Position numbers and translations under genes: made by a program
The notes under the pieces: model-generated
Told to the model about the DNA's origin: nothing
The model's input: the letters and a program-made list of their open reading frames with translations, nothing else
The model's database searches: none
Shown here: piece after piece, positions 18,959 to 40,043 of the stretch
Layout of the letters: each line of letters opens with the position of its first letter
How positions within the stretch are numbered: the first letter of the stretch is position 1
NCBI GenBank assembly: GCA_048939995.1
Contig: JBHLOY010000012.1
Span: 16,281 to 80,280, forward strand
Source of the DNA: Promethearchaeota archaeon
GTDB taxonomy: Archaea > Asgardarchaeota > Lokiarchaeia > Sigyniarchaeales > SOKP01
Direction: 5' to 3'
Length of the DNA stretch: 64,000 bases

Positions 18959-20458
18959 TTATTTTTCTTCTTTAGGTGTTAGTTTAAAAGTCCTTGAGAA
19001 GATTTTACCATAATCCTCAGTTGAAGCTTCAACTAATACATTTCCATATACAATTTGTCCATCCTTTTCTTCAAGAGGATATCCAATTTCTATAGTTTCG
19101 AATGGAAATAATTCTTTTATGGTAGTAACCCATGGTCGTTTTTCAAATAACTCTTCTAAACTAACAATTCTAATTTTTGCGTCTTCTAAAACATAACCAA
19201 TAGTATTTGTAATTGAAATATTTAGAATTTTATTTTCTTCATCAATATCTTTAGATACGCTTAAGAATTTTTTACTTCCTAAAGTTGGTGTTACTGCAAC
19301 TTGATCGTCCTCAGGTTTAGTTTCAATTCTAGGTTCTTCCTCTGCCATGTCTTTCACTATAAAGACCTTACGTTTTTGAACTGTATATTGGGATACCTTC
19401 TTTAATTTTGCTAAAAATAAGACTGAATTCAAATTAATTGCATTGAATGAATCTATTTTTAAATATCCTTTCTTGGCAGCATCTTCAATTATTTCTGCCC
19501 CAAGACCAGATCTAGCGAAAACAGTATTTTTATTAGGACCACTACCAACAGAACCCACAGAAATATCTGCTTTTTCAGAAGTCAAGTCTACGCAAAAATT
19601 GCAACTTGAAGACTTAAATTTATCTAGCTCTTTTATAGTGTAGGATTTCACCGGATTACTCTCGGGATCATAATAAATATGAAATTTACCTTTATTAATA
19701 TCCATTTTCTTAACTTTTGAGAGATCAATTCCATCTTTTTCAAAAAAAGGATAAATAGCCTCCGGGGCAAAAGAATCCATACAGAAGATACCAATCGTAA
19801 AGATATGAGCTCGCATGAAATATTTAAGCATTCCAGCTGGAGAATTCAGCATTTTATATACCGCATCGATATTACATGGAGTACCCACGAATGCTATTGA
19901 ATGGAATCCTTGTCGGATAGCCTCCATTAGAGCCTCTACTGTTTGGGAATGACAATAAATTGAACCACTTGCTTTAATTGCATCATTTTTATTTGTGACT
20001 ATTTGAGCTACGGGATACCATGGTTTTTTGGGATCCTTCATAGTTACAACAGCAGCATCAATTAAATGTTCATCAAATAAATAAGAGAGGAGTGAAGTAA
20101 CTGTACCACCATCTTGAGCTCCAATTACTTCCGGAATATTAGTATTTGCTACATAACCATTTTTGAATTCACCCATTAGTTGGATTGGGTCAGTAATAGT
20201 ACGTGGACACTGATTATAACAGATTCCACACCCAGTACACTTGCCTATTAACTTTGGTTGACTTGTAACATAGTCCCATTCAAGGACAGGACATACAGCA
20301 GCACAAGTCCCGCATTCCGTACAAATACCAGCACGGATTATTTCTTTCATTAGCATTCCATAGGAATCCTTTTTACCTTCCAGTTTCTTTTGAATATAAT
20401 CGAAAGAATATTCGTATTGGGACGATTTTTGATTTTCCTCAGTTTTATTCTCAGTCAT
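18959..20458 (-). CDS. F420 hydrogenase/dehydrogenase beta-subunit (FrhB/FdhB) family protein with ferredoxin domain and C-terminal Ig-like extension
   Basis: CTECGTCAAVCP, CTGCGICYNQCP, QDGGTVT, VGTPC, IGIFCM, CNFCVD...ADISVGSVG. Confidence 0.88.
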   Translation of the reverse strand: MTENKTEENQKSSQYEYSFDYIQKKLEGKKDSYGMLMKEIIRAGICTECGTCAAVCPVLEWDYVTSQPKLIGKCTGCGICYNQCPRTITDPIQLMGEFKNGYVANTNIPEVIGAQDGGTVTSLLSYLFDEHLIDAAVVTMKDPKKPWYPVAQIVTNKNDAIKASGSIYCHSQTVEALMEAIRQGFHSIAFVGTPCNIDAVYKMLNSPAGMLKYFMRAHIFTIGIFCMDSFAPEAIYPFFEKDGIDLSKVKKMDINKGKFHIYYDPESNPVKSYTIKELDKFKSSSCNFCVDLTSEKADISVGSVGSGPNKNTVFARSGLGAEIIEDAAKKGYLKIDSFNAINLNSVLFLAKLKKVSQYTVQKRKVFIVKDMAEEEPRIETKPEDDQVAVTPTLGSKKFLSVSKDIDEENKILNISITNTIGYVLEDAKIRIVSLEELFEKRPWVTTIKELFPFETIEIGYPLEEKDGQIVYGNVLVEASTEDYGKIFSRTFKLTPKEEK

Positions 20459-26223: not shown

Positions 26224-28167
26224 ATGGAAAAATCTGATACTCAACGGATTGGATACTATGCTTGTCAATGAGGAATAAATATTCGTGGAAAAGTTGATTG
26301 CAGTAAGCTAGTGGAATACGCTAAAGATATAGATGGAGTTGTTGTTTCTAAGCAACACAGCTTCCTCTGCACTGAGAGTGGACAAAACGAAATTATCGAA
26401 GATATCAAAGAAAAGAAACTTAGTTGCATTGTTGTTTCTGCTTGAACTCCACGTACTCATGAACCTGTTTATAGAGGATCGATCGCTAAAACTGATTTAA
26501 ACCCCTATTACTTTCAAATGGTAAATGTGCGTGAACATTGTTCTTGGTGCACTGAAAGTAATGAAGAGGCTTTAGAAAAAGCTAAAATTCTAGTAAAGAG
26601 TGGTATTGAACGTGGAAAGTTATTAGAAGTCGTTCCAATTAGAACTGTTCCTGTAGAGAAGGCCACTTTAGTTGTGGGTGGAGGAATAGCAGGTATGAAT
26701 GCAGCTTTGGACCTTGCAAATCAAGGAATTAAAGTATATTTAGTTGATAAAAATACAACCATTGGAGGTCGAATGGCGCAATTAGACAGAACATTTCCTA
26801 CGGACGACTGTGCTATTTGAATTTGCGGGCCTAAGATGCTTGAAGTAAATCGTAATGAAAATATTGAGATTCTTAGTTATTCAGAAGTTAAAAAAGTCGA
26901 AGGTTATGTGGGTAATTACGAAATTACTATTGAAAAGAAGCCTCGATATATAAATCCAGAAACTTGTAACGGATGTGGAGCCTGCGCAGAAGTCTGTCCA
27001 ACCTACACTACAAATTACTTTGATGAATATTTAGGAGCAAGGAAAACAATTGATATTGCTTTTGGTCAGGCAGTCCCTTTTCTATATGATGTTAATAGAG
27101 ATACTTGCGTGGAATGTTTTAATTGTGTCGATGCTTGTGAGTTAGATGCAATAGATTTCAGCCAAATACCAGAAGAAGTTAAATTTAAAGTTGGAACCAT
27201 TATCATTGCTACTGGTTGGGATATATATGAACCATACGGAGAATACGGCTATGGGGAATATGCCAATGTAATTACCCAATCTCAACTCGAGCGAATGTTG
27301 GCTCCAAATGGACCATTAGAAGGACATGTTCGAAGAATTTCCGATGATAAAAAATTGAATGAGATTGTTTTTATTCAATGTGTTGGAAGTCGAGATACTG
27401 AAAGAACTTACTGTAGCGGTGTCTGTTGCATGCTTGCTTTAAAAAATGGAAAGTTACTTAAGGAAGAATTTCCTGATGCTAATATTACTATTTGTTATAT
27501 TGACATTAGGACTAATGAGAAAGGTTTTGAAGAATATTACCAACGAGCTAAGGATTCGGATATTCGAATGATTCGTGGTAAAGTAGGTGAGATTTCAGAA
27601 GATCCAGATACAAAAAATGTTAAGATACGTGTATATTCGTCGTTAACTGATGAAATAATTAACATCGATGCCGATTTAGTGGTTTTGTCAACAGCAGCAT
27701 TACCATCTAGAGGCACTCAACAAATTGCAAAGGTTTTAAATTTAGATACTGATAAAAATGGATTTCTAACTGAATCCCACTTCGGTTTAATGCCACAAGA
27801 AACAAAAACTAAGGGTATTTTTATAGCTGGATTCGCACAAGGACCTAAAGATATCGCATATTCAGTGTCACAAGCAAGAGCAGCTGCGAGTAAAGTTGCC
27901 GAACTAACTTCTGCTGGTGAAATTGATCTCGAATTAATTGTGGCGGAAGTAGATAAAGATTTCTGCATTTCATGTAAAAGGTGTGAAAAGGAATGCCCAA
28001 AAGGTGCAATAAAGATTCTAGACAAAGAGGGAGCTGTTGTAGATGAAATTAATTGTGATGGATGTGGTATATGTGCTTCCTGCTGCCCAACTCGGGCAAT
28101 TGATATACGATATTACAGAGATTATCAGTTATATGCTGAAATTGAAGCACTACTAGGAGGAGATTAA
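26224..28167 (+). CDS. hdrA: Selenocysteine-containing heterodisulfide reductase subunit A (647 aa; Sec16, Sec74, Sec199)
   Basis: One frame from ATG 26224 to TAA 28167 with TGA at 26269 (RIGYYACQ*GINI), 26443 (VVSA*TPRTHE) and 26818 (FPTDDCAI*ICGPKM). The paralogue at 32617 has Cys at all three (ICHCGINI, VASCTPRTHE, NDCSLCILAPKM). Joins ORF-track fragments 26518-26820 and 26836-28167. Confidence 0.93.
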
Positions 28168-28171
28168 ACAA

Positions 28172-28612
28172 ATGGAGAAAAATTTTAATATATTAATGTT
28201 TGCTTGCTTAAAGTGAGGTTATAGTGCTGCTGATTTAGCTGGTGTCTCTCGTTTAAAGTATACTCCTTCAGTAAAAATCATAAAAGTTAGGTGCACTGGG
28301 CGAGTTGACTTAAAGCACATTTTATATGCTATTAAATCTGGAGCTGATGGGGTAATGATAGTTGGATGACGACCAGATGAATGTCAATTTAAGAATGGCA
28401 ATTTTAAAGCTCAAACTCATGTCGATTTAGCCAATAGAATATTAGAACGCAGAGGATTTGGAAACCAGAGAGTTAATCAATATTGGTTAAGTGGTGCTGA
28501 ATCTGAAAAATTAGTTAAAAGTGTTGAAGATACAATGGAAAAAGTGAGTCGCATGGGTAAAAATCCTATCCACGAAAAAAAAACAAAAAAAGTAAAAAGT
28601 GCAGCCTCTTAG
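28172..28612 (+). CDS. mvhD: Selenocysteine-containing MvhD/VhuD [2Fe-2S] subunit (146 aa; Sec15, Sec66)
   Basis: Absent from the ORF track. MEKNFNILMFACLK*GYSAADLAGVSR...VRCTGRVD...GADGVMIVG*RPDECQF...; TGA at 28214 and 28367 align to Cys in the paralogue at 35720 (FCCNWCSYAGADLAG; GCHIGDCHY). GGAGG SD at 28156; TAG stop. Confidence 0.93.
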
Positions 28613-28652
28613 AATGACTCTTATAAAAAAATATTCGTTATAAGATGACTAA
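28609..28652 (+). promoter_or_regulatory. SECIS element, eukaryote-like kink-turn type
   Basis: TTAG-AAT-GA-C-TCTTATAA-AAAAATATTCG-TTATAAGA-T-GA-CTAA: helix I TTAG/CTAA, 3-nt bulge, tandem G.A/A.G (ATGA at 28614-17, GA at 28647-48), perfect 8-bp helix II, A-rich apical loop. Confidence 0.85.
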
Positions 28653-28724
28653 CCATGTGTTGGTGTAGAGGTATTTTAATAGAATTAAATTTCAATTGTT
28701 AATAAATAAAATAGAAGAAAAAAT

Positions 28725-30224
28725 ATGGTACAGGTTGTGAATGAGAAATCATTCAGTGGAATTTCTCCAAAAAATTTGCTTGAAGCAACATTTAAGGCGT
28801 CCGAAAATTTCCAAATTAGAGCTTTTTATGAATCAAAAAAGGAGATATTAAACACATCCAAATATACCGAAAGTGAATTTTTTGAAATATATGATGCAAT
28901 GTTAGATGCGGAAACAGAAAGAAGGATTGTCTTAGAGAGGCTTAGAGGAAATAAACCATTATTTTTAGAAGAAATAATTAAGCTTATAAAAGAATTTCCT
29001 CCTGATAATGTTGTAAGAGATGTTATCTATTTAAAAGAACAAGGTTATATCGAGGAACAGGTCGAGATTAAAACTAAATTAGTCATAAAAAAAATAAAAG
29101 GAGAAGAAAAAGAAGTAGAAGAAAAAGAATATTTTTATAGATATCAAGTGAAAAATTTATCAGAGGATTTTGTTGAAAAATATTTTGAACCCGTTTCAAT
29201 CGTGTTTGAAGCAGAAGTATGTTGTCAATGTGGTTGGTGTTCTTCTATATGTCCAGTGAATGCAATAAGTGTGACATCAGATTTGCTTGAAATTGATGAA
29301 GACAAATGTATGAAATGTGGTTTATGTTTTTCGGTGTGTCCTCGTTCATTTTCAATTGATCAAGCCTATAAAACTATCCGGCAATTGGATAAAAAACTTA
29401 ATTGGTCAGATAAAATTGGAGGCTATTTTAATGCGTATTCGGGTTCAACAACAAAAGATGCAATAAAAAAGGTGAAACAGGATGGAGGTGTGGTAACCTC
29501 ATTATTAGAATACTTATTAGAGAATAAGTTAGTGGATGCCATAATTGCTGTCAAACATTCAAAGGATTTATGGAAACCTGAACCAGTAATCGTCGATAAT
29601 GTTAAGGATCTTTACATTACTGGTGGTACTAAATATGCAAACGCTGCTACATTATCATTCATCGAAGCAGCTAAAAATTATGAAAGAATTGCTGTCGTGG
29701 GAGTACCTTGTATGATGAAGGCAATTGAAAAAGGTATTCTCTTTCCAAGTGGACTCCCTTTCTTCAAAAATATCAAATATACAATTGGATTATTCTGCAT
29801 GGAATCCTTTCCTTATGAAGGAGTAGTACAATTAACTAAAGACAAATTTGATAAGGATATTAATGATCTAACAAAAATGAATATTGATAGTGGAAAATTC
29901 ATTATTAAATTGAAATCTGGAGAAGAATTGAGTGTAGATTTGAAAGAAATTAAATCATATGCTCGTCATAATTGTCACTATTGTGAAGATTTAACTTCAG
30001 ATTATGCTGATATTTCTGTTGGATCAATAGGTTCTCAAGGAGGTTGGTCTTCAGTTGTTACTCGATCTAAAGAAGGAGATGAGATTTATCAAGGTGCTAT
30101 AGATGCTGGATTGATTGAATCTCAAAGTTTAAAAGATGTAAAACCGGGGCTAGGACTTTTGGAACGAATTGCTGGAACAAAACGAAAAAATTGCAAATTG
30201 ATTGAACTTAAAAGGAGTGAATAA
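28725..30224 (+). CDS. FrhB/FdhB-family protein with N-terminal helical/winged-helix extension and ferredoxin domain
   Basis: CCQCGWCSSICP, CMKCGLCFSVCP, QDGGVVT, VGVPC, IGLFCME, CHYCED...ADISVGSIG. Confidence 0.88.
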   Translation: MVQVVNEKSFSGISPKNLLEATFKASENFQIRAFYESKKEILNTSKYTESEFFEIYDAMLDAETERRIVLERLRGNKPLFLEEIIKLIKEFPPDNVVRDVIYLKEQGYIEEQVEIKTKLVIKKIKGEEKEVEEKEYFYRYQVKNLSEDFVEKYFEPVSIVFEAEVCCQCGWCSSICPVNAISVTSDLLEIDEDKCMKCGLCFSVCPRSFSIDQAYKTIRQLDKKLNWSDKIGGYFNAYSGSTTKDAIKKVKQDGGVVTSLLEYLLENKLVDAIIAVKHSKDLWKPEPVIVDNVKDLYITGGTKYANAATLSFIEAAKNYERIAVVGVPCMMKAIEKGILFPSGLPFFKNIKYTIGLFCMESFPYEGVVQLTKDKFDKDINDLTKMNIDSGKFIIKLKSGEELSVDLKEIKSYARHNCHYCEDLTSDYADISVGSIGSQGGWSSVVTRSKEGDEIYQGAIDAGLIESQSLKDVKPGLGLLERIAGTKRKNCKLIELKRSE

Positions 30225-30225
30225 G

Positions 30226-31338
30226 ATGAGTTCCAAAACTTTTGAGGATTTAATTAAAGAAGTTCATGAAAAGGGTATCTGCCAAGAATGTGGAGGTTGT
30301 GTATCCTTTTGTTCCTCAGCAGAGTATGATGTAATAGGATTAAAGGACCCATACAAGCCTCCTGAATATATTAATAAAGAAAAATGCCTGGAATGTGGAA
30401 TTTGTTACCATATTTGTCCACAAACCCATATCTTAGATGATGATTTAAATGAGATATATAATTTCTCAGACTTTTCAGCAACTCCTATAGGATATTATGA
30501 AGATATCTATTCATGTCAAGCAACAGATCCAGAATTTTTAAAATATGGAACAGATGGAGGAGTTGTTAATTCTATTATTAATTTTCTAATTGAAAAGAAA
30601 ATGGTTGATGGTGCAATAGTATCTAAAACTGATGCTCCATTTTCCAGAGAAGCAACATTTGCTGATAGTAAATACGATCTATTAAAAGCCTCTGGAGCAA
30701 AATTAGATATCACCCCACAATTAAATGAAATACAAAAGTTTTGCACCTACACTCATTCTATTCCCGAATTAAATCATTATAAGTTTAAAAAATTAGCAAT
30801 AGTTGGAACTCCATGTCAAATTTATACTATCAGGTGTATGCAAGATTTAGGAGTTACTCCTTCAGAAAATGTTGAAATTTGTCTTGGATTATTTTGTTAT
30901 GAAAACTTTCTATTTGAAAAATTTCAAATTGAGAAATTTGAAAAAGATTTTAATATAAGATTTAGAGACATTGTTAAGATAAATATTAAGGAAGATGTGA
31001 TTTTTAAATTACGGAGTGAGGCTCCTACAGAAAAAATTGTACATGTTCCTTTTAATCATTTGAATGATTATATGCGTCCAGCTTGTAATGCTTGTGGGGA
31101 TTTTACTAATATCTTTGCGGATATATCATTTGGAGGTTTAGGGTCTCAAGATAAATATACTACTGTAATAACTCGAACTAAAAAAGGAAAAGAAATCTTT
31201 TCTAAAGTTGTTAATGAAGGAGTAATTACTAGCAAAGAATTAGATGCAACTAAAAGAAAGAAAATGCTAGATTCAATTATAGAATATTCGAAATTAAAAG
31301 TATTGCGTAAAGAAAAGTTTATGCAGAAATTAACATAA
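30226..31338 (+). CDS. Second FrhB/FdhB-family protein
   Basis: CQECGGCVSFC, CLECGICYHICP, TDGGVV, VGTPC, LGLFCYE, CNACGD...ADISFGG; ATG 30226 follows the upstream stop. Confidence 0.88.
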   Translation: MSSKTFEDLIKEVHEKGICQECGGCVSFCSSAEYDVIGLKDPYKPPEYINKEKCLECGICYHICPQTHILDDDLNEIYNFSDFSATPIGYYEDIYSCQATDPEFLKYGTDGGVVNSIINFLIEKKMVDGAIVSKTDAPFSREATFADSKYDLLKASGAKLDITPQLNEIQKFCTYTHSIPELNHYKFKKLAIVGTPCQIYTIRCMQDLGVTPSENVEICLGLFCYENFLFEKFQIEKFEKDFNIRFRDIVKINIKEDVIFKLRSEAPTEKIVHVPFNHLNDYMRPACNACGDFTNIFADISFGGLGSQDKYTTVITRTKKGKEIFSKVVNEGVITSKELDATKRKKMLDSIIEYSKLKVLRKEKFMQKLT

Positions 31339-31341
31339 AAT

Positions 31342-32598
31342 GTGAGAAGTATAACAGAATCGAAAAGAGATATTGAAAGGAAAAAATTCTTTGGTGATAC
31401 ATTAGATTATTTAGATAAAGTTTACGAATCTAACCTAAGAAATTTATTAAAAAAATGTTATCAATGTGGACGTTGTAGTAGTGTCTGCCAACTAAGCAAA
31501 GTTCAAAAATTTCCCCCAAGTAGGATTATTCAGTTAATCTTGGAAGGATTTGAAGATAAAGTATTGAATTCTGGGGTTTTATGGGATTGCCTTACATGTA
31601 ACCAATGTTTAAAAGACTGCCCAGAAAAAATTAATTTCGCAGATATCGTTAGAATTGCACGATATAAAATGAGACACGAAGCTAATCAAAAATCTGACGA
31701 TTTAGTTGCTCATAAGGGCATTTATACTACAATAGCTGAAATTATGAGTAGACCATACATTACACCAGAAAGATCATTAGAATGGATACCAAAAGATTGC
31801 GGCGTGTCAGATAAAGGAGATATACTTTATTATATTGGATGTTTACCTTTCTATGAATATGAATTTGAAGGTTCAAATAATATTGCTACAAGTACCATAA
31901 AACTCTTATGCCAAATTGAAAAGAAATCAATAGTAGTTTTGAAAGAAGAAAGTTGTTGTGGGCATGATATTTACTGGGGACAGGGCAAATTGAAGACTTT
32001 TATCAAATTGGCAAAGAAAAATTTAGATAAATTTGAAAAAGCGGGAGTCTCTACAATAATCACCGCATGTGCTGAATGTTATAGAACTCTTAAAATTGAT
32101 TATTCGAATATTTTTGAGAATTTTTCATCTAAGTTTAAAGTAAAGCATATTATTGAATACATTTATGATAAATGGAAACAAAATGAAATAGCATTTAAGG
32201 GACCAGTAGAAGAGGATAAAGATACCACATTTACCTACCATGATCCCTGTAGGTTGAGTAGATTTTTACCTGAGGAGGTGAATTTAACTAAAAAAATTAG
32301 AGAAATTTTTAACGAATTAATGAAGTTAGGATTCAACTTTAAAGAAATGAAACACAATCAAGAAAATTCTCTTTGTTGTGGAGTAAATTCATGGATGAAT
32401 TGTAATGAAAAATCTAAAGCACTCAGATATAAACGTATGCTAGAGGCAAAATCAGTAGCAACTATAATGGTTACTTCGTGCCCGAAATGTGAGCTACACT
32501 TTAAATGTCTTCAAAATGATTTTGAAGATATTGCAAGTATTAAAATCTTGGATTTTTCAGAGTTTATTATAAACAATGTTGAGATAATTGGTACCTAA
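31342..32598 (+). CDS. hdrD: HdrD-like (HdrC+HdrB fusion) Fe-S/CCG-domain protein
   Basis: CYQCGRCSSVC, CLTCNQCLKDCP, two CCG domains (GC...CCG...CAEC; HDPC...CCG...CPKC). Confidence 0.85.
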   Translation: MRSITESKRDIERKKFFGDTLDYLDKVYESNLRNLLKKCYQCGRCSSVCQLSKVQKFPPSRIIQLILEGFEDKVLNSGVLWDCLTCNQCLKDCPEKINFADIVRIARYKMRHEANQKSDDLVAHKGIYTTIAEIMSRPYITPERSLEWIPKDCGVSDKGDILYYIGCLPFYEYEFEGSNNIATSTIKLLCQIEKKSIVVLKEESCCGHDIYWGQGKLKTFIKLAKKNLDKFEKAGVSTIITACAECYRTLKIDYSNIFENFSSKFKVKHIIEYIYDKWKQNEIAFKGPVEEDKDTTFTYHDPCRLSRFLPEEVNLTKKIREIFNELMKLGFNFKEMKHNQENSLCCGVNSWMNCNEKSKALRYKRMLEAKSVATIMVTSCPKCELHFKCLQNDFEDIASIKILDFSEFIINNVEIIGT

Positions 32599-32616
32599 AA
32601 GGTGAGAGATAACAGA

Positions 32617-35600
32617 ATGGAAGGGTCTGTTTTAGTAATAGGCGGTGGTATTGCCGGAATCCAAACTTCATTAGATTTAACAGAATTGGGGTTTAAAGTA
32701 TATCTAGTGGAGAGAAACCCATCAATTGGAGGCCGCATGGCTCAACTTGATAAAACTTTTCCAACAAATGATTGTAGCTTATGTATTTTAGCTCCAAAAA
32801 TGGTCGAAGTCTTTAGAAATTCAAATATAGAACTCATGACATATCATGAAGTATTAAGCATATCTGGGGAAGCGGGAGATTTTACAGTAAATATTTTGAA
32901 AAAACCAAGATACATAGACGAAACTAAATGTAAGGGTTGTGGTGATTGTTCTCAGCGCTGTCCTAAAATAGAAGTACCAAATCTATTTGATATGAAATTA
33001 GGTAAAAGAAAATCCATTTATATCCCCTTTCCACAAGCTGTTCCCCCTATTTATCTAATTGATCCTGAAATCTGTCTTAAATTAACTAAGGGCGTATGTG
33101 GTGTATGTGAGAAAGTATGTAAAGCTGAAGCAATCGATTATGAACAGAAGCCTAAAGAAATTCAAATCAAAGTGGGAGCGATTGTAGTTGCTACTGGTTT
33201 TGATATGCCCGCAGAGCGTTTAACTTCCAGATGGGGTTATCACTATAAAAATGTAGTCAGCGCTTTAGAATATGAAAGAATTCTGTGTGCTTCTGGTCCA
33301 TTTGGTGGACATGTACTACGTCCAAGTGATGAAACTGAGCCCGAAAATATAGCTTTTATACAATGTGCAGGATCACGGGATCTACATGAAAATATTCCTT
33401 ATTGTTCAAGTGTGTGTTGTATGTATACAGCAAAGGAAGCTATTATCACAAAGGAACATTCTGAAAAGTCTAAGTGTTATGTTTTTAGACACGATATTAG
33501 AGCCTATGGTAAAAATTTCTATGAATTCACCCAAAGAGCACAAGATGAATACGGTGTGCAATACTTTCAGACTAAAGTAAGTAAAGTCGAAGAGGACCCC
33601 GATAATAATGATTTAATCATGCATTATGAAGATTTAAAAACAGGAGAATTTAAAAATTTTAGAAGTAACTTGGTAGTATTAGCAACACCATTAGTTCCAT
33701 CACAAGGCACCGTGGAAATGGCAAAAATTTTAGGGGTTGAATTAGATAAGTATGATTTTTTTAAAGAAAGCTCTTATTTCAATAAATCACTATCGTCTAG
33801 GGAAGGTATATATTTAAGCGGTTTCTGCCAAGGACCAATGGATATTCCAGAAACCGTGGCAGATGCGAGTGGAGTAGCATCTCAAATCGCTTCATTGCTT
33901 AATTCTGTAAAGTTTAAAGGCATAAAAGAAAAACTTCGAGAAAAGTCTGAGTTAGAGGTTAAAATTTCTGATGAACCTCGAATTGGAGTGTTAATATGTC
34001 ATTGTGGGATAAATATCGGTAAATATATTGATGTTTCCGAAGTTGTTGAATATGTAAAAACTTTGCCTTATGTAGCTCATTGTGAAGCTAATTTGTATTC
34101 TTGTTCAAGTGATTCTCAAGCAAGAATTAAAGAAATGATTGAAGAATATAATCTAAATAGATTTATTGTTGCTTCTTGTACGCCTCGAACTCATGAAGCT
34201 CTGTTCCAAGAAACTTGTCAAGAGGCAGGTTTGAATAAATATTTGTTCGAAATGGTAAATATTCGTGATCAATGTTCTTGGGTTCATATGAATGAATATG
34301 AATTTGCTACCGAAAAAGCTAAAGACTTAATTAGAATGGCTATTGCAAAAGCACGGTTATTAAAGCCTCTTAAAGAAGCGCGATTAGATATAACTCCAAC
34401 AGCCTTAATAATTGGTGGTGGAGTTTCGGGTATGACTGCAGCTTTAAATATTTCAAATCAGGGATTTAAAGTATTTTTAGTGGAGAAAGAAAACCAATTA
34501 GGCGGAAATTTAAATCGATTAAATATTTTGTACCCCATTCATGAAGATGCTTCAAAATTTTTAAAAGATATAACGGGTCAAGTAAAAAGCAATAAAAATA
34601 TTGAATTATATTTAAACTCTCAAATTAAGAGTATAAAAGGTTATATTGGTAATTATGATGTTTCAATCGTCGACTCAAAACAGAAAATTCATGATTTAAA
34701 AATTGGTACGATTATAGTAGCAACTGGGGCTCAAGAATTAAAACCAACGGGGGTATTTCAATATAATGAAAAAAATGAAAATGTTATTACTCAGCTTGAG
34801 TTGGAAAAAAAACTAAAAAGCAAAGATTTATCATGGTTAGATAAAATTGAAAGAGCAGCAATAATTTTATGCGTAAACGCAAGGCAAAAGGAGGGAATTA
34901 CATATTGTTCTAACGTTTGCTGTGGAGTAAGTATTAAGAATCTAAGTCTGTTAAAAGAATTAAAGCCTGAAATTGAGATTGTTGTTCTTTACAGAGATTT
35001 TCAAATGGCTAAAAAAGAATTTGAGGAGTATTATCGTGAGCGTAGGAAGAATGCTATTTTTCTTAGATACGATTTAGAAAACTTGCCAAAAATTGATAAA
35101 TTAAATGATAAACCAGAAAAGTACAGAATTAGTTTATTTGATACAAATTTACAAGATGATATTAATTTTGATACAGATCTAATTATATTATCAACTCCTA
35201 TGGTTCCTAATAACAATTTGACAGAATTAGCAAAAATGCTAAAAGTACCTCTAGATAAAAATGGATTTTTTTTGGAAGCACATGTAAAGCTTCGACCTTT
35301 AGATTTTGCTACTGATGGAATATTTTTAAGTGGCTGTGCTCAATGGCCGAAAAATGTTCAAGATTCTATCGCTCAAGCAAATGGTGCTGCTGGAAGGGCT
35401 AGTAGATTTTTAAGCGCAAAAACGATAACAACTTCTGGCTTAATAGCAGAAGTGAATACAAATAGATGCATTGGTTGTGGAAAATGCGAATCTGTTTGTC
35501 CATATAATGCGATTGAGATTAAAGAAGCATTAATGGAGTTCGAAGAGATCAGTATAAAAGTAGCAAAATCTTATATAAATTCAGCCTTATGTAAGGGATG

Positions 35601-35700
35601 TGGTACTTGTGCTGCTACTTGTCCTAATGGTGCTATTTCAGTTAAACATTATGACTTTGATCAAATTTATGCAATGATAGAATCATATTTATTAGAATAG
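32617..35700 (+). CDS. hdrA: Large HdrA-family protein with two FAD modules (Cys type)
   Basis: Two GGG.(A/S)G FAD motifs, QLDKTFPTNDC, internal CHCG/CTPRTHE/CSWVH domain, two CS.VCC motifs, inserted and C-terminal ferredoxins; ATG 32617 preferred. Confidence 0.92.
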   Translation: MEGSVLVIGGGIAGIQTSLDLTELGFKVYLVERNPSIGGRMAQLDKTFPTNDCSLCILAPKMVEVFRNSNIELMTYHEVLSISGEAGDFTVNILKKPRYIDETKCKGCGDCSQRCPKIEVPNLFDMKLGKRKSIYIPFPQAVPPIYLIDPEICLKLTKGVCGVCEKVCKAEAIDYEQKPKEIQIKVGAIVVATGFDMPAERLTSRWGYHYKNVVSALEYERILCASGPFGGHVLRPSDETEPENIAFIQCAGSRDLHENIPYCSSVCCMYTAKEAIITKEHSEKSKCYVFRHDIRAYGKNFYEFTQRAQDEYGVQYFQTKVSKVEEDPDNNDLIMHYEDLKTGEFKNFRSNLVVLATPLVPSQGTVEMAKILGVELDKYDFFKESSYFNKSLSSREGIYLSGFCQGPMDIPETVADASGVASQIASLLNSVKFKGIKEKLREKSELEVKISDEPRIGVLICHCGINIGKYIDVSEVVEYVKTLPYVAHCEANLYSCSSDSQARIKEMIEEYNLNRFIVASCTPRTHEALFQETCQEAGLNKYLFEMVNIRDQCSWVHMNEYEFATEKAKDLIRMAIAKARLLKPLKEARLDITPTALIIGGGVSGMTAALNISNQGFKVFLVEKENQLGGNLNRLNILYPIHEDASKFLKDITGQVKSNKNIELYLNSQIKSIKGYIGNYDVSIVDSKQKIHDLKIGTIIVATGAQELKPTGVFQYNEKNENVITQLELEKKLKSKDLSWLDKIERAAIILCVNARQKEGITYCSNVCCGVSIKNLSLLKELKPEIEIVVLYRDFQMAKKEFEEYYRERRKNAIFLRYDLENLPKIDKLNDKPEKYRISLFDTNLQDDINFDTDLIILSTPMVPNNNLTELAKMLKVPLDKNGFFLEAHVKLRPLDFATDGIFLSGCAQWPKNVQDSIAQANGAAGRASRFLSAKTITTSGLIAEVNTNRCIGCGKCESVCPYNAIEIKEALMEFEEISIKVAKSYINSALCKGCGTCAATCPNGAISVKHYDFDQIYAMIESYLLE

Positions 35701-35719
35701 AAACAAAATGTGAACTTAT

Positions 35720-36157
35720 ATGCCAAAAGCAAAAACTAAATCAAAAACCGTGCAATTTAATCCCGAAATTTTAGTGTTTTGTTGTAATTGGTGTAGTTAT
35801 GCAGGGGCAGATTTAGCTGGGGTTTCAAGGTTCCAATACCCTCCTAATATGAGAATAGTTAGAGTTATGTGCTCGGGAAGAGTAGATCCTGCATTTGTTA
35901 TAAAGGCTTTAAAGGAAGGGGCCGATGGTATATTAATAACTGGTTGCCATATTGGTGATTGTCATTATATTTCAGGGAATGAATATGCAAAAGAGCGATT
36001 CGAAAGATTACATAGTATTATTATTAAGCAACTTGGTATTAATGAAAAAAGAGTAAGGTTAGAATGGGTTTCTGCTTCAGAAGGAAAGCGTTTTGCAGAT
36101 TTGATTACAGAATTTACAAATCAAATCAAAGAATTAGGACCACTTAAAATACTTTAA
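35720..36157 (+). CDS. mvhD: MvhD [2Fe-2S] subunit (Cys type)
   Basis: FCCNWCSYAGADLAG, MCSGRVDP, GCHIGDCHY, WVSASEG. Confidence 0.95.
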   Translation: MPKAKTKSKTVQFNPEILVFCCNWCSYAGADLAGVSRFQYPPNMRIVRVMCSGRVDPAFVIKALKEGADGILITGCHIGDCHYISGNEYAKERFERLHSIIIKQLGINEKRVRLEWVSASEGKRFADLITEFTNQIKELGPLKIL

Positions 36158-36418
36158 TTCTAAATTTAAGATTTTCAAACATTTTTGTTTTTTGTAACAT
36201 TATTAAAAATAAAGATATGAATCTGAATTAAATAAAATATTTTTGGACGAGTTGTTATATTAAAAAGTAAACAGAAAAAAGCAATATCGGTAACCTACTG
36301 CACGAATTTTCAAAATTCTGATGGAAATAAGCATTTCATGGAAATCCTAATTGAAAATTTAATTAACGCAAAATTAATTTATATTTAATATATTAAAATT
36401 TAATCAGTGTAATTTGTT

Positions 36419-36976: not shown

Positions 36977-37298
36977 TAAAAAAAAAACCAAGTAAAGGCG
37001 AACTTAAGCTAGAAATTATCTTAAAAATAGTTCAATAAATTGACATTTTCATTAATTTAATTGAACTTAATTTAGTTTTTCAGTAAATAATAAAAAATTT
37101 TTTTTTGACTTGGTACAAATTTAAAGAAAAGGATCGCGATTTCTGATCATAATTTCGATATCTGATAGATAACTAATCATTTAATTTATCATATTGAAAA
37201 TATTTCATTAAATCATGATCGATTTGGATCAAAAGATTTAAAAGTGTAAATATCTCATTTTGATAGTAAAATTCTATTTTGAAATTGGGGATAAAAAA

Positions 37299-40043
37299 AT
37301 GGAAGGTTCTGTTTTAGTTATTGGTGGAGGTATCGCTGGAATTCAGACATCGTTAGATTTAACGGAATTAGGGTTTAAAGTCTTTTTGGTTGAGAAAGAA
37401 CCATCAATTGGAGGTCATATGGCCCAATTTGACAGACTTTTTCCAAACGATGATTGTAGCCTCTGTATCTTGGCTCCAAAAATGGTGAGTGTATATAGAA
37501 ATCCCAATATTGAGCTTTTTACCCTATCGGAAATAACAGAAGTTGAAGGAGAAGTAGGAAATTTCAAAGTTACGATAAAACAGCGTCCAAGATATATTGA
37601 TGAAAATAAGTGTAAAGGTTGTGGCGATTGTGCTAAGCGTTGTCCAAAGATAGAAGTACCTAATTTATTTGATATGAACTTAGGGAAGAGAAAATCAATA
37701 TATATGCCTTTTCCTCAAGCAACACCTCCTGTATATATTATAGATCATGAAATATGTTTATATTTAAACAGAGAAGTATGTGGAGTGTGTAAAAAAGTAT
37801 GTAAAGGTGATGCAATTGATTTTGAACAAGAAGAGCGAGAAATTACAATAATAGTTGGAGCAATTGTTATAGCTACTGGATTCGATATGATTGGTGAAGA
37901 TTTGCACCCAAAATGGGGTTATCAATATAAAAACGTAATTAATGCTTTAGAATATGAAAGGATATTATCACCCACAGGTCCATTTGGTAATCAAATTCTT
38001 AGACCTAGCGATGAAACAGAACCCGAAGTAATAGCGTTCATTCAATGTGCAGGTTCTGGTTACTTAAGAGAGAATATACCCTATTGTTCACGTGTTTGCT
38101 GTATGTATATTGCTAAAAATGCTATATTAAGTAAAACATATGTTGAAAATGCTCAAATAACCATATTCAGACATAATATTCGAGTATTTGGGAGGAATTT
38201 TTATGAGTATACCAAATCTGCTCAAGATGAATATGGTATTAACTACATAAATTCAGGAGTCAACTTTATTGAAGAGAATCCCGAAACTAATGATCTAATT
38301 ATAAATTATGATAATTTAAAAACAGGAAAAAAAAATCTATCTTTTCACGCTAATCTAGTTGTGCTAGCAGCTCCTTTAGTCCCTTCAAATGGAACGTCTC
38401 ATTTAGCAAAACTATTAGGGATTGAGCTTGACAATTATGGCTTTTTTAAGGAATCTTCTTATTTCAATAAATCTCTTTCTTTAAGAGAGGGAATTTATCT
38501 TTGTGGATTTTGTAAAGAACCGATGAATATCACGGAAACAGTTGCTCACGCTAGTGGAGTAGCTTCACAGGTTGCAACATTATTAAATTCAGTTAGATCT
38601 ACTTTAATAAGAGAAAAAGAAGTAGACATCCGCCCTGAAGAAGAAATCATAGAAATTATCCCAAGAGCATTAATAATTGGGGGAGGTGTTTCAGGCATGA
38701 CTGCAGCATTAAATATAAGTAGTCAAGGATTTGGTGCAATTGTTATTGAAAAAGAAAGTATGCTAGGAGGGAATCTAAATCAACTAAACCAAATTTATCC
38801 AATAAAGCAAGATCCATCATCTCTTATGCAAAAACTAAAAGAAAGCGTGCACACTGCAAGGAATATTGAAGTGCTTTTAAATTCTAAAGTTGAAAAAGTG
38901 AGTGGATCTATAGGTAAGTATGAAATCACAATTAGAAAGGCTAGTTCTGAAGTGATAATGAAGATTGTTGGGGTTATAATTATAGCTACTGGTAGTCAAG
39001 AATTCAAACCTTACGGATTCTTCCAATACGGAGCTTATAAAAATATTCTTACTCAGATGGATTTAGAGAAGAAATTAAAGACTAAAGATTTATCATGGTT
39101 GAAGAATATAAACCACTTTACAACAATTATGTGTGTAAATGCAAGACAGAAAGGAGGATTCCCATATTGTTCGAATATATGTTGTAGTAATACAATTAAA
39201 AATATCAATATTCTGAAGGAATTAAAGCCAAAACTTGAAGCTGTTGTCCTTTTTAGGGAATTACATATGGCCAAAAAGGAATTTGAGGACTATGTAAGTA
39301 AAAGGAAGAAGTTAGCTAACTATTTAAAATACGATTTAGAAAATTTACCTGAAATAATTAATGTTAAAGAACAACCTGAAAGGTTTGAAATTAAGTTAAG
39401 ATATAATCAGAATACAGAAAAAATGATCAGCTTTAAAACTGATTTAGTAATATTATCAACCCCTATGATTCCTCCCAAAGGAATAGAGAATCTAGCTGAT
39501 ATATTAAACGTACCCATAGATAAAAACGGCTTCTTTATAGAAGCTCATAAAAAGTTAAGGCCTTTAGACTTTTCATCTCAAGGAATTTTTGTTTGTGGAT
39601 GTGCTCAATGGCCAAAAACGGTTCAAGATTCAATTTCGGAAGCTAATGGGGCTGCGGGGCGGGCAAGTAGATTTTTAAATATTAGAAAAATATCCACGAC
39701 CAAATTAGAATTACTCTCATTTTTACTTTCAATTGAATGCTATTTTAAGGATATTAAAGTGAATTCAGAAAAATGTAATGGATGCGGAAGGTGTGTAGAA
39801 GTATGCGAATTTAGAGCGATTTCCCTTAATCAGTTAAAGCAAGAATATGAGGATATTAGTATTGCTACAAAGAAAGCCGTAATCAATCCAGCAATTTGCA
39901 AGGGATGTGGAAAATGCTCAGCAACATGCAGATTAAAAGCAATATATCCGCGACATTATGATTTCAAACAAATTTCGGCTATAATTGACCCCTATTTTAT
40001 AGAAAAAGCTAAAACTGAAGAGTTGTCCTTAATTAATATTTGA
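37299..40043 (+). CDS. hdrA: HdrA-family two-FAD-module paralogue lacking the internal CHCG/CTP/CSW domain
   Basis: Colinear with 32617-35700 (same MEGSVLVIGGGIAGIQTSLDLTELGFKV start; ATG 37299) except for the missing central segment. Confidence 0.9.
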   Translation: MEGSVLVIGGGIAGIQTSLDLTELGFKVFLVEKEPSIGGHMAQFDRLFPNDDCSLCILAPKMVSVYRNPNIELFTLSEITEVEGEVGNFKVTIKQRPRYIDENKCKGCGDCAKRCPKIEVPNLFDMNLGKRKSIYMPFPQATPPVYIIDHEICLYLNREVCGVCKKVCKGDAIDFEQEEREITIIVGAIVIATGFDMIGEDLHPKWGYQYKNVINALEYERILSPTGPFGNQILRPSDETEPEVIAFIQCAGSGYLRENIPYCSRVCCMYIAKNAILSKTYVENAQITIFRHNIRVFGRNFYEYTKSAQDEYGINYINSGVNFIEENPETNDLIINYDNLKTGKKNLSFHANLVVLAAPLVPSNGTSHLAKLLGIELDNYGFFKESSYFNKSLSLREGIYLCGFCKEPMNITETVAHASGVASQVATLLNSVRSTLIREKEVDIRPEEEIIEIIPRALIIGGGVSGMTAALNISSQGFGAIVIEKESMLGGNLNQLNQIYPIKQDPSSLMQKLKESVHTARNIEVLLNSKVEKVSGSIGKYEITIRKASSEVIMKIVGVIIIATGSQEFKPYGFFQYGAYKNILTQMDLEKKLKTKDLSWLKNINHFTTIMCVNARQKGGFPYCSNICCSNTIKNINILKELKPKLEAVVLFRELHMAKKEFEDYVSKRKKLANYLKYDLENLPEIINVKEQPERFEIKLRYNQNTEKMISFKTDLVILSTPMIPPKGIENLADILNVPIDKNGFFIEAHKKLRPLDFSSQGIFVCGCAQWPKTVQDSISEANGAAGRASRFLNIRKISTTKLELLSFLLSIECYFKDIKVNSEKCNGCGRCVEVCEFRAISLNQLKQEYEDISIATKKAVINPAICKGCGKCSATCRLKAIYPRHYDFKQISAIIDPYFIEKAKTEELSLINI

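Follow-up and report, generated by a model that had tools for sequence, protein, structure and literature searches.

Here, we report the analysis of a seven-gene cluster in a 64,000-nucleotide (nt) stretch (hereafter, the window) of contig JBHLOY010000012.1, assembly GCA_048939995.1, a metagenome-assembled genome (MAG) of a Promethearchaeota archaeon of the class Lokiarchaeia. Seven consecutive same-strand open reading frames (ORFs) at window positions 26224-36157 (+) follow the order hdrA(3 Sec)-mvhD(2 Sec)-frhB1-frhB2-hdrD-like-hdrAA(fused double)-mvhD(Cys), where Sec stands for selenocysteine and Cys for cysteine. With moderate confidence, we propose that these genes encode a hydrogenase-independent, FrhB-linked heterodisulfide reductase (Hdr) system of two usually co-inherited modules that performs flavin-based electron bifurcation or confurcation with coenzyme F420, ferredoxin (Fd), and a disulfide as the participants. 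Synteny points to a first module composed of HdrA(3 Sec)-MvhD(2 Sec)-FrhB1 and a second one composed of FrhB2-HdrD-like-HdrAA-MvhD(Cys).

The ORFs were called with TGA read as Sec and compared with Pfam and NCBIfam (Table 1). An earlier note on this DNA, made from the sequence alone, had described seven tightly packed same-strand genes of these types without MvhA/MvhG, FdhA, or separate HdrB/HdrC; all coordinates and identities were borne out. The spacers between successive genes are 4, 112, -23 (+1 with frhB2 ATG 30226), 3, 3, and 19 nt. No hydrogenase, molybdopterin protein, or separate HdrB/HdrC is encoded within the cluster, and the genome matches to those families are located on other contigs; a hydrogenase close to the cluster was likewise looked for and rejected. 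A cytochrome b-like subunit (HdrE) was not detected with Pfam in the cluster or within a few kb on each side, which sets the system apart from HdrDE; the only membrane proteins in the vicinity are a DUF998 protein ~3 kb upstream and major facilitator superfamily (MFS) transporters from ~4 kb downstream. The T-run TTTTTGTTTTTTG that follows the last gene is a candidate archaeal terminator, judging from its composition. An Rfam gathering scan and a tRNA scan of the window yielded no matches. The seven genes use TAA or TAG stops throughout and never TGA, which is not statistically significant with so few genes.

Table 1. Features of the cluster and its surroundings (positions in the 64,000-nt window)
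Feature	Position	Strand	Details
hdrA, type I, selenoprotein	26224..28167	+	647 aa (amino acids); U16, U74, U199; NCBIfam HdrA2/HdrA 768/595 bits
mvhD/vhuD, selenoprotein	28172..28612	+	146 aa; U15, U66; Pfam FlpD 2e-43; VhuD NF045873 149 bits
Loki-type selenocysteine insertion sequence (SECIS)	28604..28672	+	AUGA/GA core, covariation
frhB1	28725..30224	+	499 aa; Pfam FrhB_FdhB_N+C; PRK09325 271 bits
frhB2	30202..31338	+	378 aa from TTG 30202, more likely 370 aa from ATG 30226; Pfam FrhB_FdhB_N+C
hdrD-like	31342..32598	+	418 aa; Pfam Fer4_8 + CCG x2
hdrAA, fused double hdrA (type II)	32602..35700	+	1032 aa, probable start ATG 32617; phmmer vs 5ODC_A
mvhD, Cys form	35720..36157	+	145 aa; Pfam FlpD 3e-56; every ligand position Cys
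T-rich tract TTTTTGTTTTTTG	36184..36196	+	27 nt past final stop codon; read off sequence
hdrAA2, second double hdrA, associated gene	37260..40043	+	927 aa; BLASTP vs P0006, synteny

Conservation of gene order was assessed in 74 loci retrieved with double HdrA from species-representative genomes, all of which are Asgard MAGs, mostly labelled Promethearchaeota or Promethearchaeia. The synteny survey suggested in the earlier note thus gave a positive result: the complete order recurs in about 25 of the 74 loci, from species-level relatives with 58-94% identity, and this recurrence is not due to chance. The invariant core across the loci is hdrD-hdrAA-mvhD. In loci L010, L022, L053-55, and L071, frhB2-hdrD-hdrAA-mvhD stands without hdrA-mvhD-frhB1, further loci carry hdrAA-hdrD-hdrAA-mvhD, and in some loci a divergently transcribed, more distant hdrA-mvhD-frhB1 paralogue lies beside the core. 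Conversely, stand-alone hdrA-mvhD-frhB1-like triads are present in the same genome on contig C21 and at 72-76 kb of contig C17. Because the modules are found apart, a single seven-subunit complex is not established; of the one multi-flavin complex claimed previously, the conserved linkage of the seven genes stands, but by synteny it resolves into two separable modules.

It is conceivable, although we consider it unlikely, that all seven products nevertheless form one supercomplex with two serial bifurcation steps and three HdrA-type flavins that raises F420H2 electrons to ferredoxin, which is essentially how the cluster had been read before. The tight gene spacing with a single T-run after gene 7, the conservation of the complete order in some 25 species, the lack of an HdrBC or HdrD in module 1, and the presence of E356/K409 equivalents in all three thioredoxin reductase-like (TrxR) domains are compatible with such an assembly, and serial bifurcation has been speculated for expanded type II clusters (PMC12054007). 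However, the independent occurrence of the second module, of the triad on C21, and of the divergent triad paralogue beside the core argues for separability, and the 112-nt gap that contains the SECIS could hold an internal promoter.

The first gene of the cluster encodes a type I HdrA (P0001) that aligns with the 777-position HdrA2 model (NF040770, 768 bits) over model positions 1-641. Read against the alignment with 5ODC_A, it contains the N-terminal iron-sulfur (FeS) domain, the TrxR fold, the Cys197 position, equivalents of E356 and K409 (in SQLER and CCMLALKN, respectively), and the inserted and C-terminal 2x[4Fe-4S] domains, with the motifs CQU, UTPR, CSW, DCAIU, SQLER, and CCMLALK and four CxxCxxCxxxC motifs. 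Its scores are below the methanogen equivalog cut-offs (NF041778/NF041891/NF040770; 768/595/595 bits vs 1100/1400/1300), and the protein is an HdrA homologue, not the methanogen enzyme. Three ligand positions are occupied by Sec. Two of them belong to the N-terminal FeS domain, U16 to its CxC motif and U74 to its C(S/T)PR motif, and the third, U199, takes the place of Cys197 in Methanothermobacter wolfeii HdrA. The adjoining MvhD consists of a FlpD domain whose ligand positions 12/15/41/66/71 hold Cys or Sec throughout the paralogues. All three hdrA sites retain TGA in 26-27 orthologues and both mvhD sites in 28-29, with the adjacent ligand cysteines remaining Cys in each case.

The 112-nt spacer after mvhD(Sec) is occupied by a SECIS element that has all the hallmarks of the lokiSECIS, namely, the AUGA...GA core (28614-28617 and 28647-48), a 9-bp stem (28618-26/28638-46), an 11-nt A-rich loop, and a location just 3' of a selenoprotein gene, with the lower stem overlapping the mvhD stop. 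No Rfam family matched this element, and an alignment of 26 sequences was used in place of a model: 94% of the cells pair, compared to 37-54% with the partner slid, and compensatory changes occur in 5 of the 9 pairs. The arrangement, in which an HdrA-VhuD pair shares one element, was published by Mariotti et al. in 2016 (PMC4989117) and extended subsequently (PMC11227280). A single SECIS serving both genes implies that hdrA and mvhD are on one mRNA. The mvhD(Sec) stop coincides with the UGA of the AUGA core in 20 of 28 orthologous loci. Directly 3' of the core, a small hairpin (CCN-loop-NGG, 28653-28663) is conserved at the same position in 25 related loci, with some covariation at the third pair (alignment columns 64-75); it is not mentioned in the accessible parts of PMC4989117 and PMC11227280.

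Both FrhB copies have an N-terminal 2x[4Fe-4S] ferredoxin domain ahead of the FrhB core that holds FAD (flavin adenine dinucleotide) together with a [4Fe-4S] cluster. FrhB1 is ~40% identical to true FrhB (4OMF/3ZFS, E 2e-54) and also matches FwdI (8RJA_E, E 1e-50) and the carbon monoxide dehydrogenase (CODH) zeta subunit (8RIU_B, 4e-43); FwdI is also the best Protein Data Bank relative of FrhB2 (8RJA_E, E 1e-39), and the FwdI and CODH zeta matches over both copies range from E 1e-50 to 1e-36. F420 reduction has been measured for both of these Ethanoperedens modules (PMC11493965). Loss of the FAD/F420-binding residues had been named as an outcome that would speak against the complex proposed in the earlier note. 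Across 28 sequences that cover both paralogues, the [4Fe-4S] ligands C329/C358/C417/C420 (FrhB1 numbering) do not vary, nor do the DGG and ADIS-G-GS motifs, and the G-x-K motif is kept in both copies. In NCBIfam, FrhB1 reaches 271 bits with PRK09325 (subfamily cut-off 269) and 230 bits with TIGR03289 (equivalog cut-off 331). Judging from their closest solved relatives, the F420 biosynthesis genes of the genome, and the co-occurrence at the family level, FrhB1 and FrhB2 may bind and turn over F420.

FrhB1 additionally carries a conserved 150-aa N-terminal extension that is predicted to be helical and winged-helix (about residues 15-145) and is modelled with confidence by AlphaFold2 (pLDDT 83 for the protein). 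Residues 63-145 match winged-helix folds with Z 7-8.5 and an rmsd of ~1.8 Å over 60-65 residues in an exhaustive structural aligner only; there was no Pfam match to the extension at E<=1 and no Foldseek hit at E<=0.001. Speculatively, the modelled winged helix might be a docking domain. The HdrA-MvhD fusion adjoining mvhG-mvhA elsewhere in this genome (C13:239781-242276, +) has an N-terminal DUF7347 domain, which, together with the FrhB1 extension, may indicate that Loki Hdr subunits repeatedly carry small helix-turn-helix-like domains as additions. A third FrhB-family gene lies in the window, 6 kb upstream on the opposite strand (18959-20458, -); its 499-aa product has Fer4 and FrhB N/C domains and a ~160-aa C-terminal extension.

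In the second module, the HdrD-like subunit (P0005) combines HdrC-like 2x[4Fe-4S] with two complete CCG motifs, the signature of non-cubane [4Fe-4S] clusters, as expected of HdrD/HdrB-type proteins: its cysteine map comprises two CxxCxxCxxxC motifs together with C167-x37-CC-x36-CxxC and C303-x41-CC-x33-CxxC. The best NCBIfam match is TfrB, at 126 bits, under the cut-off.

The fused HdrAA (P0006), whose relatives are 71-92% identical, contains two TrxR/FAD domains in one chain. According to phmmer comparison with 5ODC_A, residues 10-380 correspond to HdrA 146-511, that is, a TrxR domain with the inserted Fd domain, and the DCSLC motif of this half provides C61 as the Cys197 equivalent. Residues 457-610 correspond to HdrA 2-155, which comprise the N-terminal FeS domain and the start of the second TrxR domain, and residues 857-1028 to HdrA 485-648, such that the C-half carries the C-terminal Fd domain. 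The C-half has neither the inserted Fd domain nor the Cys197 motif, with LNILYPIHED where DCxxC is expected. The N-terminal FeS domain and Cys197 are thus complementary between the halves, and this asymmetry is the definition of type II (fused) HdrA in anaerobic methanotrophic archaea (ANME) and methanogens (PMC9012536, PMC12054007). It implies an intramolecular pseudo-heterodimer with one complete electron route. Inspection against the 5ODC_A alignment indicates that the equivalents of E356 and K409, named as key residues for bifurcation in PMC12054007, are kept in both halves of HdrAA as well as in the type I HdrA.

The associated gene hdrAA2, found downstream of the cluster in ~18 related loci, is probably a separate transcription unit. 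Its product is 69% identical to P0006 in the N-half and 53% in the C-half (BLASTP), lacks the counterpart of P0006 residues 445-590, which form the internal N-terminal FeS domain, and still carries a Cys197-type motif; neither an MvhD nor an HdrD goes with it. The terminal TGA of hdrAA2 (40041-40043) was considered as a sixth Sec codon and rejected: only two orthologues align past this TGA, with unrelated residues, and the codon is a real stop.

The electron path that we infer by analogy with the Mvh-Hdr structure of M. wolfeii and the FrhB/FwdI structures would begin with the reaction of F420H2/F420 at the FrhB FAD. Electrons would then pass through the FrhB [4Fe-4S] cluster and the N-terminal 2x[4Fe-4S] domain of FrhB to the [2Fe-2S] cluster of MvhD, and enter HdrA via the C-terminal Fd domain to arrive at the bifurcating FAD; FrhB would stand at the place of MvhAG in the Mvh-Hdr structure. 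One branch would lead through the two non-cubane clusters of the HdrD-like subunit to the reduction of a disulfide, and the other one to ferredoxin by way of the N-domain cluster, for which the partner half supplies Cys197/Sec199, and then the inserted Fd domain. Within HdrAA, the route would run from MvhD to the C-terminal Fd domain, the FAD, the N-domain cluster, and the inserted Fd domain. Such a single complete route fits a composition in which each HdrAA is paired with a single MvhD, FrhB, and HdrD. F420H2-dependent HdrA2B2C2 and type II HdrA-FdhB clusters provide precedents (PMC12054007, PMC9012536).

The genomic background is compatible with this role. The genome (3.75 Mb in 38 contigs, with the cluster on contig C26) is estimated to be 98% complete. 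The earlier note had called for a check of F420 biosynthesis and of the coenzyme M (CoM)/coenzyme B (CoB) pathway. CofH (469 bits, with a CofG-like neighbour) and CofE (269 bits) were found, as was the F420-dependent Mtd (352 bits). McrA, ComA, and Fno were not found in the genome, in keeping with the non-methanogen predicted in that note, and neither was a Frh-type hydrogenase or strict Mer (TIGR03555), with only a Mer-like luciferase-family match at 121 bits. The F420H2-ferredoxin-disulfide coupling claimed originally is backed in part by the gene identities, the F420 genes, and the FrhB motifs; F420 specificity and the identity of the disulfide are predictions. Given that the F420-dependent Mtd needs F420H2 and that no Frh hydrogenase or Fno was found, the direction in the cell may be reversed, with F420 being reduced at the expense of reduced ferredoxin, whether or not thiols take part.

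The phyletic pattern also fits a link of the system with F420. Among 400 genomes of the phylum searched for full-length FrhB1 orthologues including the N-terminal extension, these are almost confined to the family of the source organism (126 of 134 genomes, against 0 of 14 in the sister family), and three sister-family genomes without FrhB1 are also without Mtd and CofH. FrhB1, Mtd, and CofH were not found in two single-contig sister-family genomes of 4.4 Mb and 6.0 Mb.

Several observations weigh against the proposed function. FrhB2 is the more divergent copy, with GAKL at the place of the FrhB GTKY, and scores below the family cut-offs (174 bits vs 269 for PRK09325; 154 vs 331 for TIGR03289). 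The FrhB family takes in non-F420 enzymes such as HCAR (5DQR), a ferredoxin-dependent protein that is a weak match to FrhB1. Since ComA and methyl-coenzyme M reductase (MCR) were not found in the genome, the disulfide partner is not assignable to CoM/CoB, and a disulfide reductase is missing from module 1. The link to F420 is not strict either: genus g6 of the same family has CofH and no FrhB1 orthologue, and the relatives counted in the phyletic comparison are not independent samples. Finally, a hydrogenase locus on contig C17, vhuG-vhuA-vhuU(Sec)-hdrC-hdrB, has no hdrA or vhuD.

As an alternative, the FrhB paralogues might not use F420 and/or the HdrD-like protein might not act on a disulfide. 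The system would then be a ferredoxin-linked oxidoreductase for another substrate, which could be NAD(P)H, a compound of sulfur, or an organic acid of the kind handled by the CCG proteins LutA/GlcF/TfrB. The place of HCAR within the FrhB family, the low scores of FrhB2, and the lack of any CoM pathway marker among the genome matches fit this explanation, as does the variety of substrates among CCG-domain proteins, with TfrB as the best match of P0005. Nevertheless, FrhB1 exceeds the PRK09325 cut-off and is close in sequence to true FrhB, both CCG motifs are complete, as in HdrB, F420 biosynthesis co-occurs at the family level, and the cluster encodes no substrate-specific catalytic subunit. 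We consider this alternative improbable.

The C17 locus bears on another alternative, namely, that the [NiFeSe] Vhu hydrogenase encoded there is completed by the Sec HdrA-MvhD(VhuD) pair, in which case the system would depend on H2 and FrhB would be an accessory. This locus encodes HdrCB and VhuU (DCUxxC) and lacks exactly the two subunits that the pair would supply. In Methanococcales, Sec isoforms work together. Furthermore, such proteins are named VhuD in PMC4989117. However, the genome contains four Sec-type hdrA-mvhD pairs. An FrhB-family gene comes directly after three of them (in the window, on C21, and on C17) and a hydrogenase after none; the fourth, on C8, has no FrhB neighbour and would be a freer candidate. 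A Cys-type hdrC-hdrB-hdrA-mvhD cluster is located only 17 kb from the Vhu genes, and the linkage of the pair to frhB1/frhB2 is conserved across species. Taken together, these findings make a Vhu partnership improbable. The vhuU-like micro-ORF itself (C17:421585-421782, +), positioned after the [NiFe] large subunit gene, contains an in-frame TGA in the Ni-ligand motif FDCULSCAAH (DCUxxC).

The hydrogenase-independent, FrhB-linked system is also consistent with the distribution of catalytic subunits in the genome. The only two [NiFe] large subunits (PF00374) are encoded on C13, in the locus hdrA-mvhD(fusion)-mvhG-mvhA, and on C17, each beside its own Hdr parts, and no [NiFe] subunits are encoded together with the MvhD/HdrA of the cluster, as they would be for an Mvh/Vhu-Hdr complex. 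A hydrogenase partner encoded elsewhere, which had been listed as a finding that would count against the original proposal, is therefore answered in part: both hydrogenases have their own Hdr neighbours, but the Vhu-HdrCB cluster without HdrA/VhuD exists. The three molybdopterin matches (PF00384) are on C27, C6, and C17, and none is on C26.

The Hdr complement of this genome is large, with at least nine single hdrA-mvhD pairs, six double hdrA genes, and seven HdrB-like genes that score at the equivalog cut-off or close to it; the HdrA expansion agrees with PMC11237513. It includes a paralogous hdrD-hdrAA core at C17:300790-305736 (+; locus L102:1791-6737), where a single 1648-aa protein contains a GltD/NfnB-like insertion and a fused MvhD; an hdrD-like gene is at L102:568-1734. 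By its predicted domains, this paralogue has the core in common with the cluster but takes an input of the NAD(P)H type. A GltD/NfnB-like insertion instead of FrhB neighbours fits a common core with exchangeable donor modules. Traits of 'type II', 'type III', and 'Ia' are united in this single 1648-aa polypeptide. At C17:72525-79079 (-), genes for an aldehyde:ferredoxin oxidoreductase (AOR), a polyferredoxin, hdrA(2 Sec), mvhD(2 Sec), and an FrhB_C/Fer4_8 protein form one same-strand run that suggests an AOR-linked Hdr/FrhB module.

Lokiarchaeia are closely related to the lineage of the eukaryotic host, and the debate on their energy metabolism sets H2-dependent acetogenesis against syntrophic fermentation. 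With Mtd and F420 biosynthesis present and no Frh or Fno found, a hydrogenase-free FrhB-Hdr system is the obvious candidate for F420 reduction or re-oxidation. A role of this kind would account for the retention of a dozen or more HdrA modules in archaea without MCR, and it sharpens the question of which disulfide such archaea use. On a bolder and rather doubtful extrapolation, the cluster would be the main F420 redox hub of Wood-Ljungdahl-bearing Lokiarchaeia, a two-module, three-flavin bifurcating machine with a Se-ligated FeS cluster in which a thiol/disulfide pair other than CoM/CoB couples ferredoxin and F420; if so, an undiscovered heterodisulfide-type cofactor would exist in Asgard archaea. 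Seven genes with five Sec codons and one SECIS make a defined target for expression and purification.

Among known systems, the closest resemblance is to the type II HdrA clusters of ANME and Methanosarcinales (Chadwick 2022, PMC9012536; PMC12054007, 2025), for which F420H2-linked bifurcation or confurcation has been proposed. These share the fused HdrA, in which one half has Cys197 and no N-domain and the other half the reverse, an FrhB-family presumed F420 port, MvhD, an HdrD-like protein, an extra type I HdrA, and the absence of a hydrogenase. The order of the halves in the Loki protein is that of the 2025 description (A6-like N-half, A12-like C-half; PMC12054007) and opposite to the wording of Chadwick 2022. 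Unlike the type II HdrA-Molybdop-FdhB clusters, the Loki cluster has no FdhA-like molybdopterin scaffold and encodes two FrhB proteins, both with the N-terminal Fd domain and one with the winged-helix extension; it has an HdrD-like protein only, with no HdrBC, and its type I HdrA and the cognate MvhD are selenoproteins. MCR and ComA were not found in the Loki host, which makes CoM-S-S-CoB an unlikely substrate.

With MvhADG-HdrABC of Methanothermococcus/Methanothermobacter (5ODC), the cluster shares the HdrA domain set, the Cys197 cross-ligation, the MvhD connector, and the two CCG motifs; it differs in that MvhA/MvhG are absent, HdrB and HdrC are fused as the HdrD-like protein, the HdrA dimer is replaced by a fused pseudo-heterodimer, and the Loki HdrA is below the NCBIfam HdrA equivalog cut-offs. 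HdrA2B2C2 of Methanosarcina acetivorans (PMC5296606) is F420H2-dependent and electron-bifurcating; it shares with the Loki system the lack of a hydrogenase and the link to F420H2 that is proposed here. Among NCBIfam models, NF040770 'HdrA2' fits P0001, P0006, and P0007 best. In the Methanosarcina enzyme, F420H2 presumably reacts at HdrA2 itself, no FrhB being involved, and HdrA2 is fused with MvhD, whereas the Loki cluster has a separate MvhD and FrhB-type subunits. The FwdI and CODH zeta modules of Ca. Ethanoperedens (8RJA, 8RIU; PMC11493965) have the same combination of N-terminal 2x[4Fe-4S] and FrhB core docking on a redox enzyme, with Fwd/CODH as the partner there and HdrA/MvhD here. The hdrA-mvhD-frhB triads of Korarchaeia, a proposed Fd:F420 oxidoreductase (PMC10667645), match module 1, and that proposal is likewise purely genomic.

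The Loki HdrA-VhuD pairs reported previously are the same as genes 1-2 here, with a multi-Sec HdrA, a two-Sec VhuD, and one AUGA/GA SECIS, and are assigned to Vhu/Hdr; the downstream frhB-frhB-hdrD-hdrAA-mvhD genes are not described in those papers (PMC4989117, PMC11227280). A literature search with Asgard- and Loki-specific terms returned no description of the seven-gene cluster in Asgard archaea, an earlier mention in Spang 2019 or Imachi 2020 being possible. Already published are the Sec pair with its shared SECIS (2016), fused HdrA in Loki and Thor genomes (double HdrA in Loki, 2024), and, from methane-metabolising archaea, F420-linked type II HdrA clusters that include FdhB, HdrD, and an additional HdrA. 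What is new is the conserved Lokiarchaeial arrangement without a molybdopterin scaffold and with two Fd-domain FrhB subunits, one of them winged-helix, its modular structure, its restriction to one F420/Mtd-bearing family, and a genome context that makes it a candidate F420 hub in an MCR-less, CoM-less organism.

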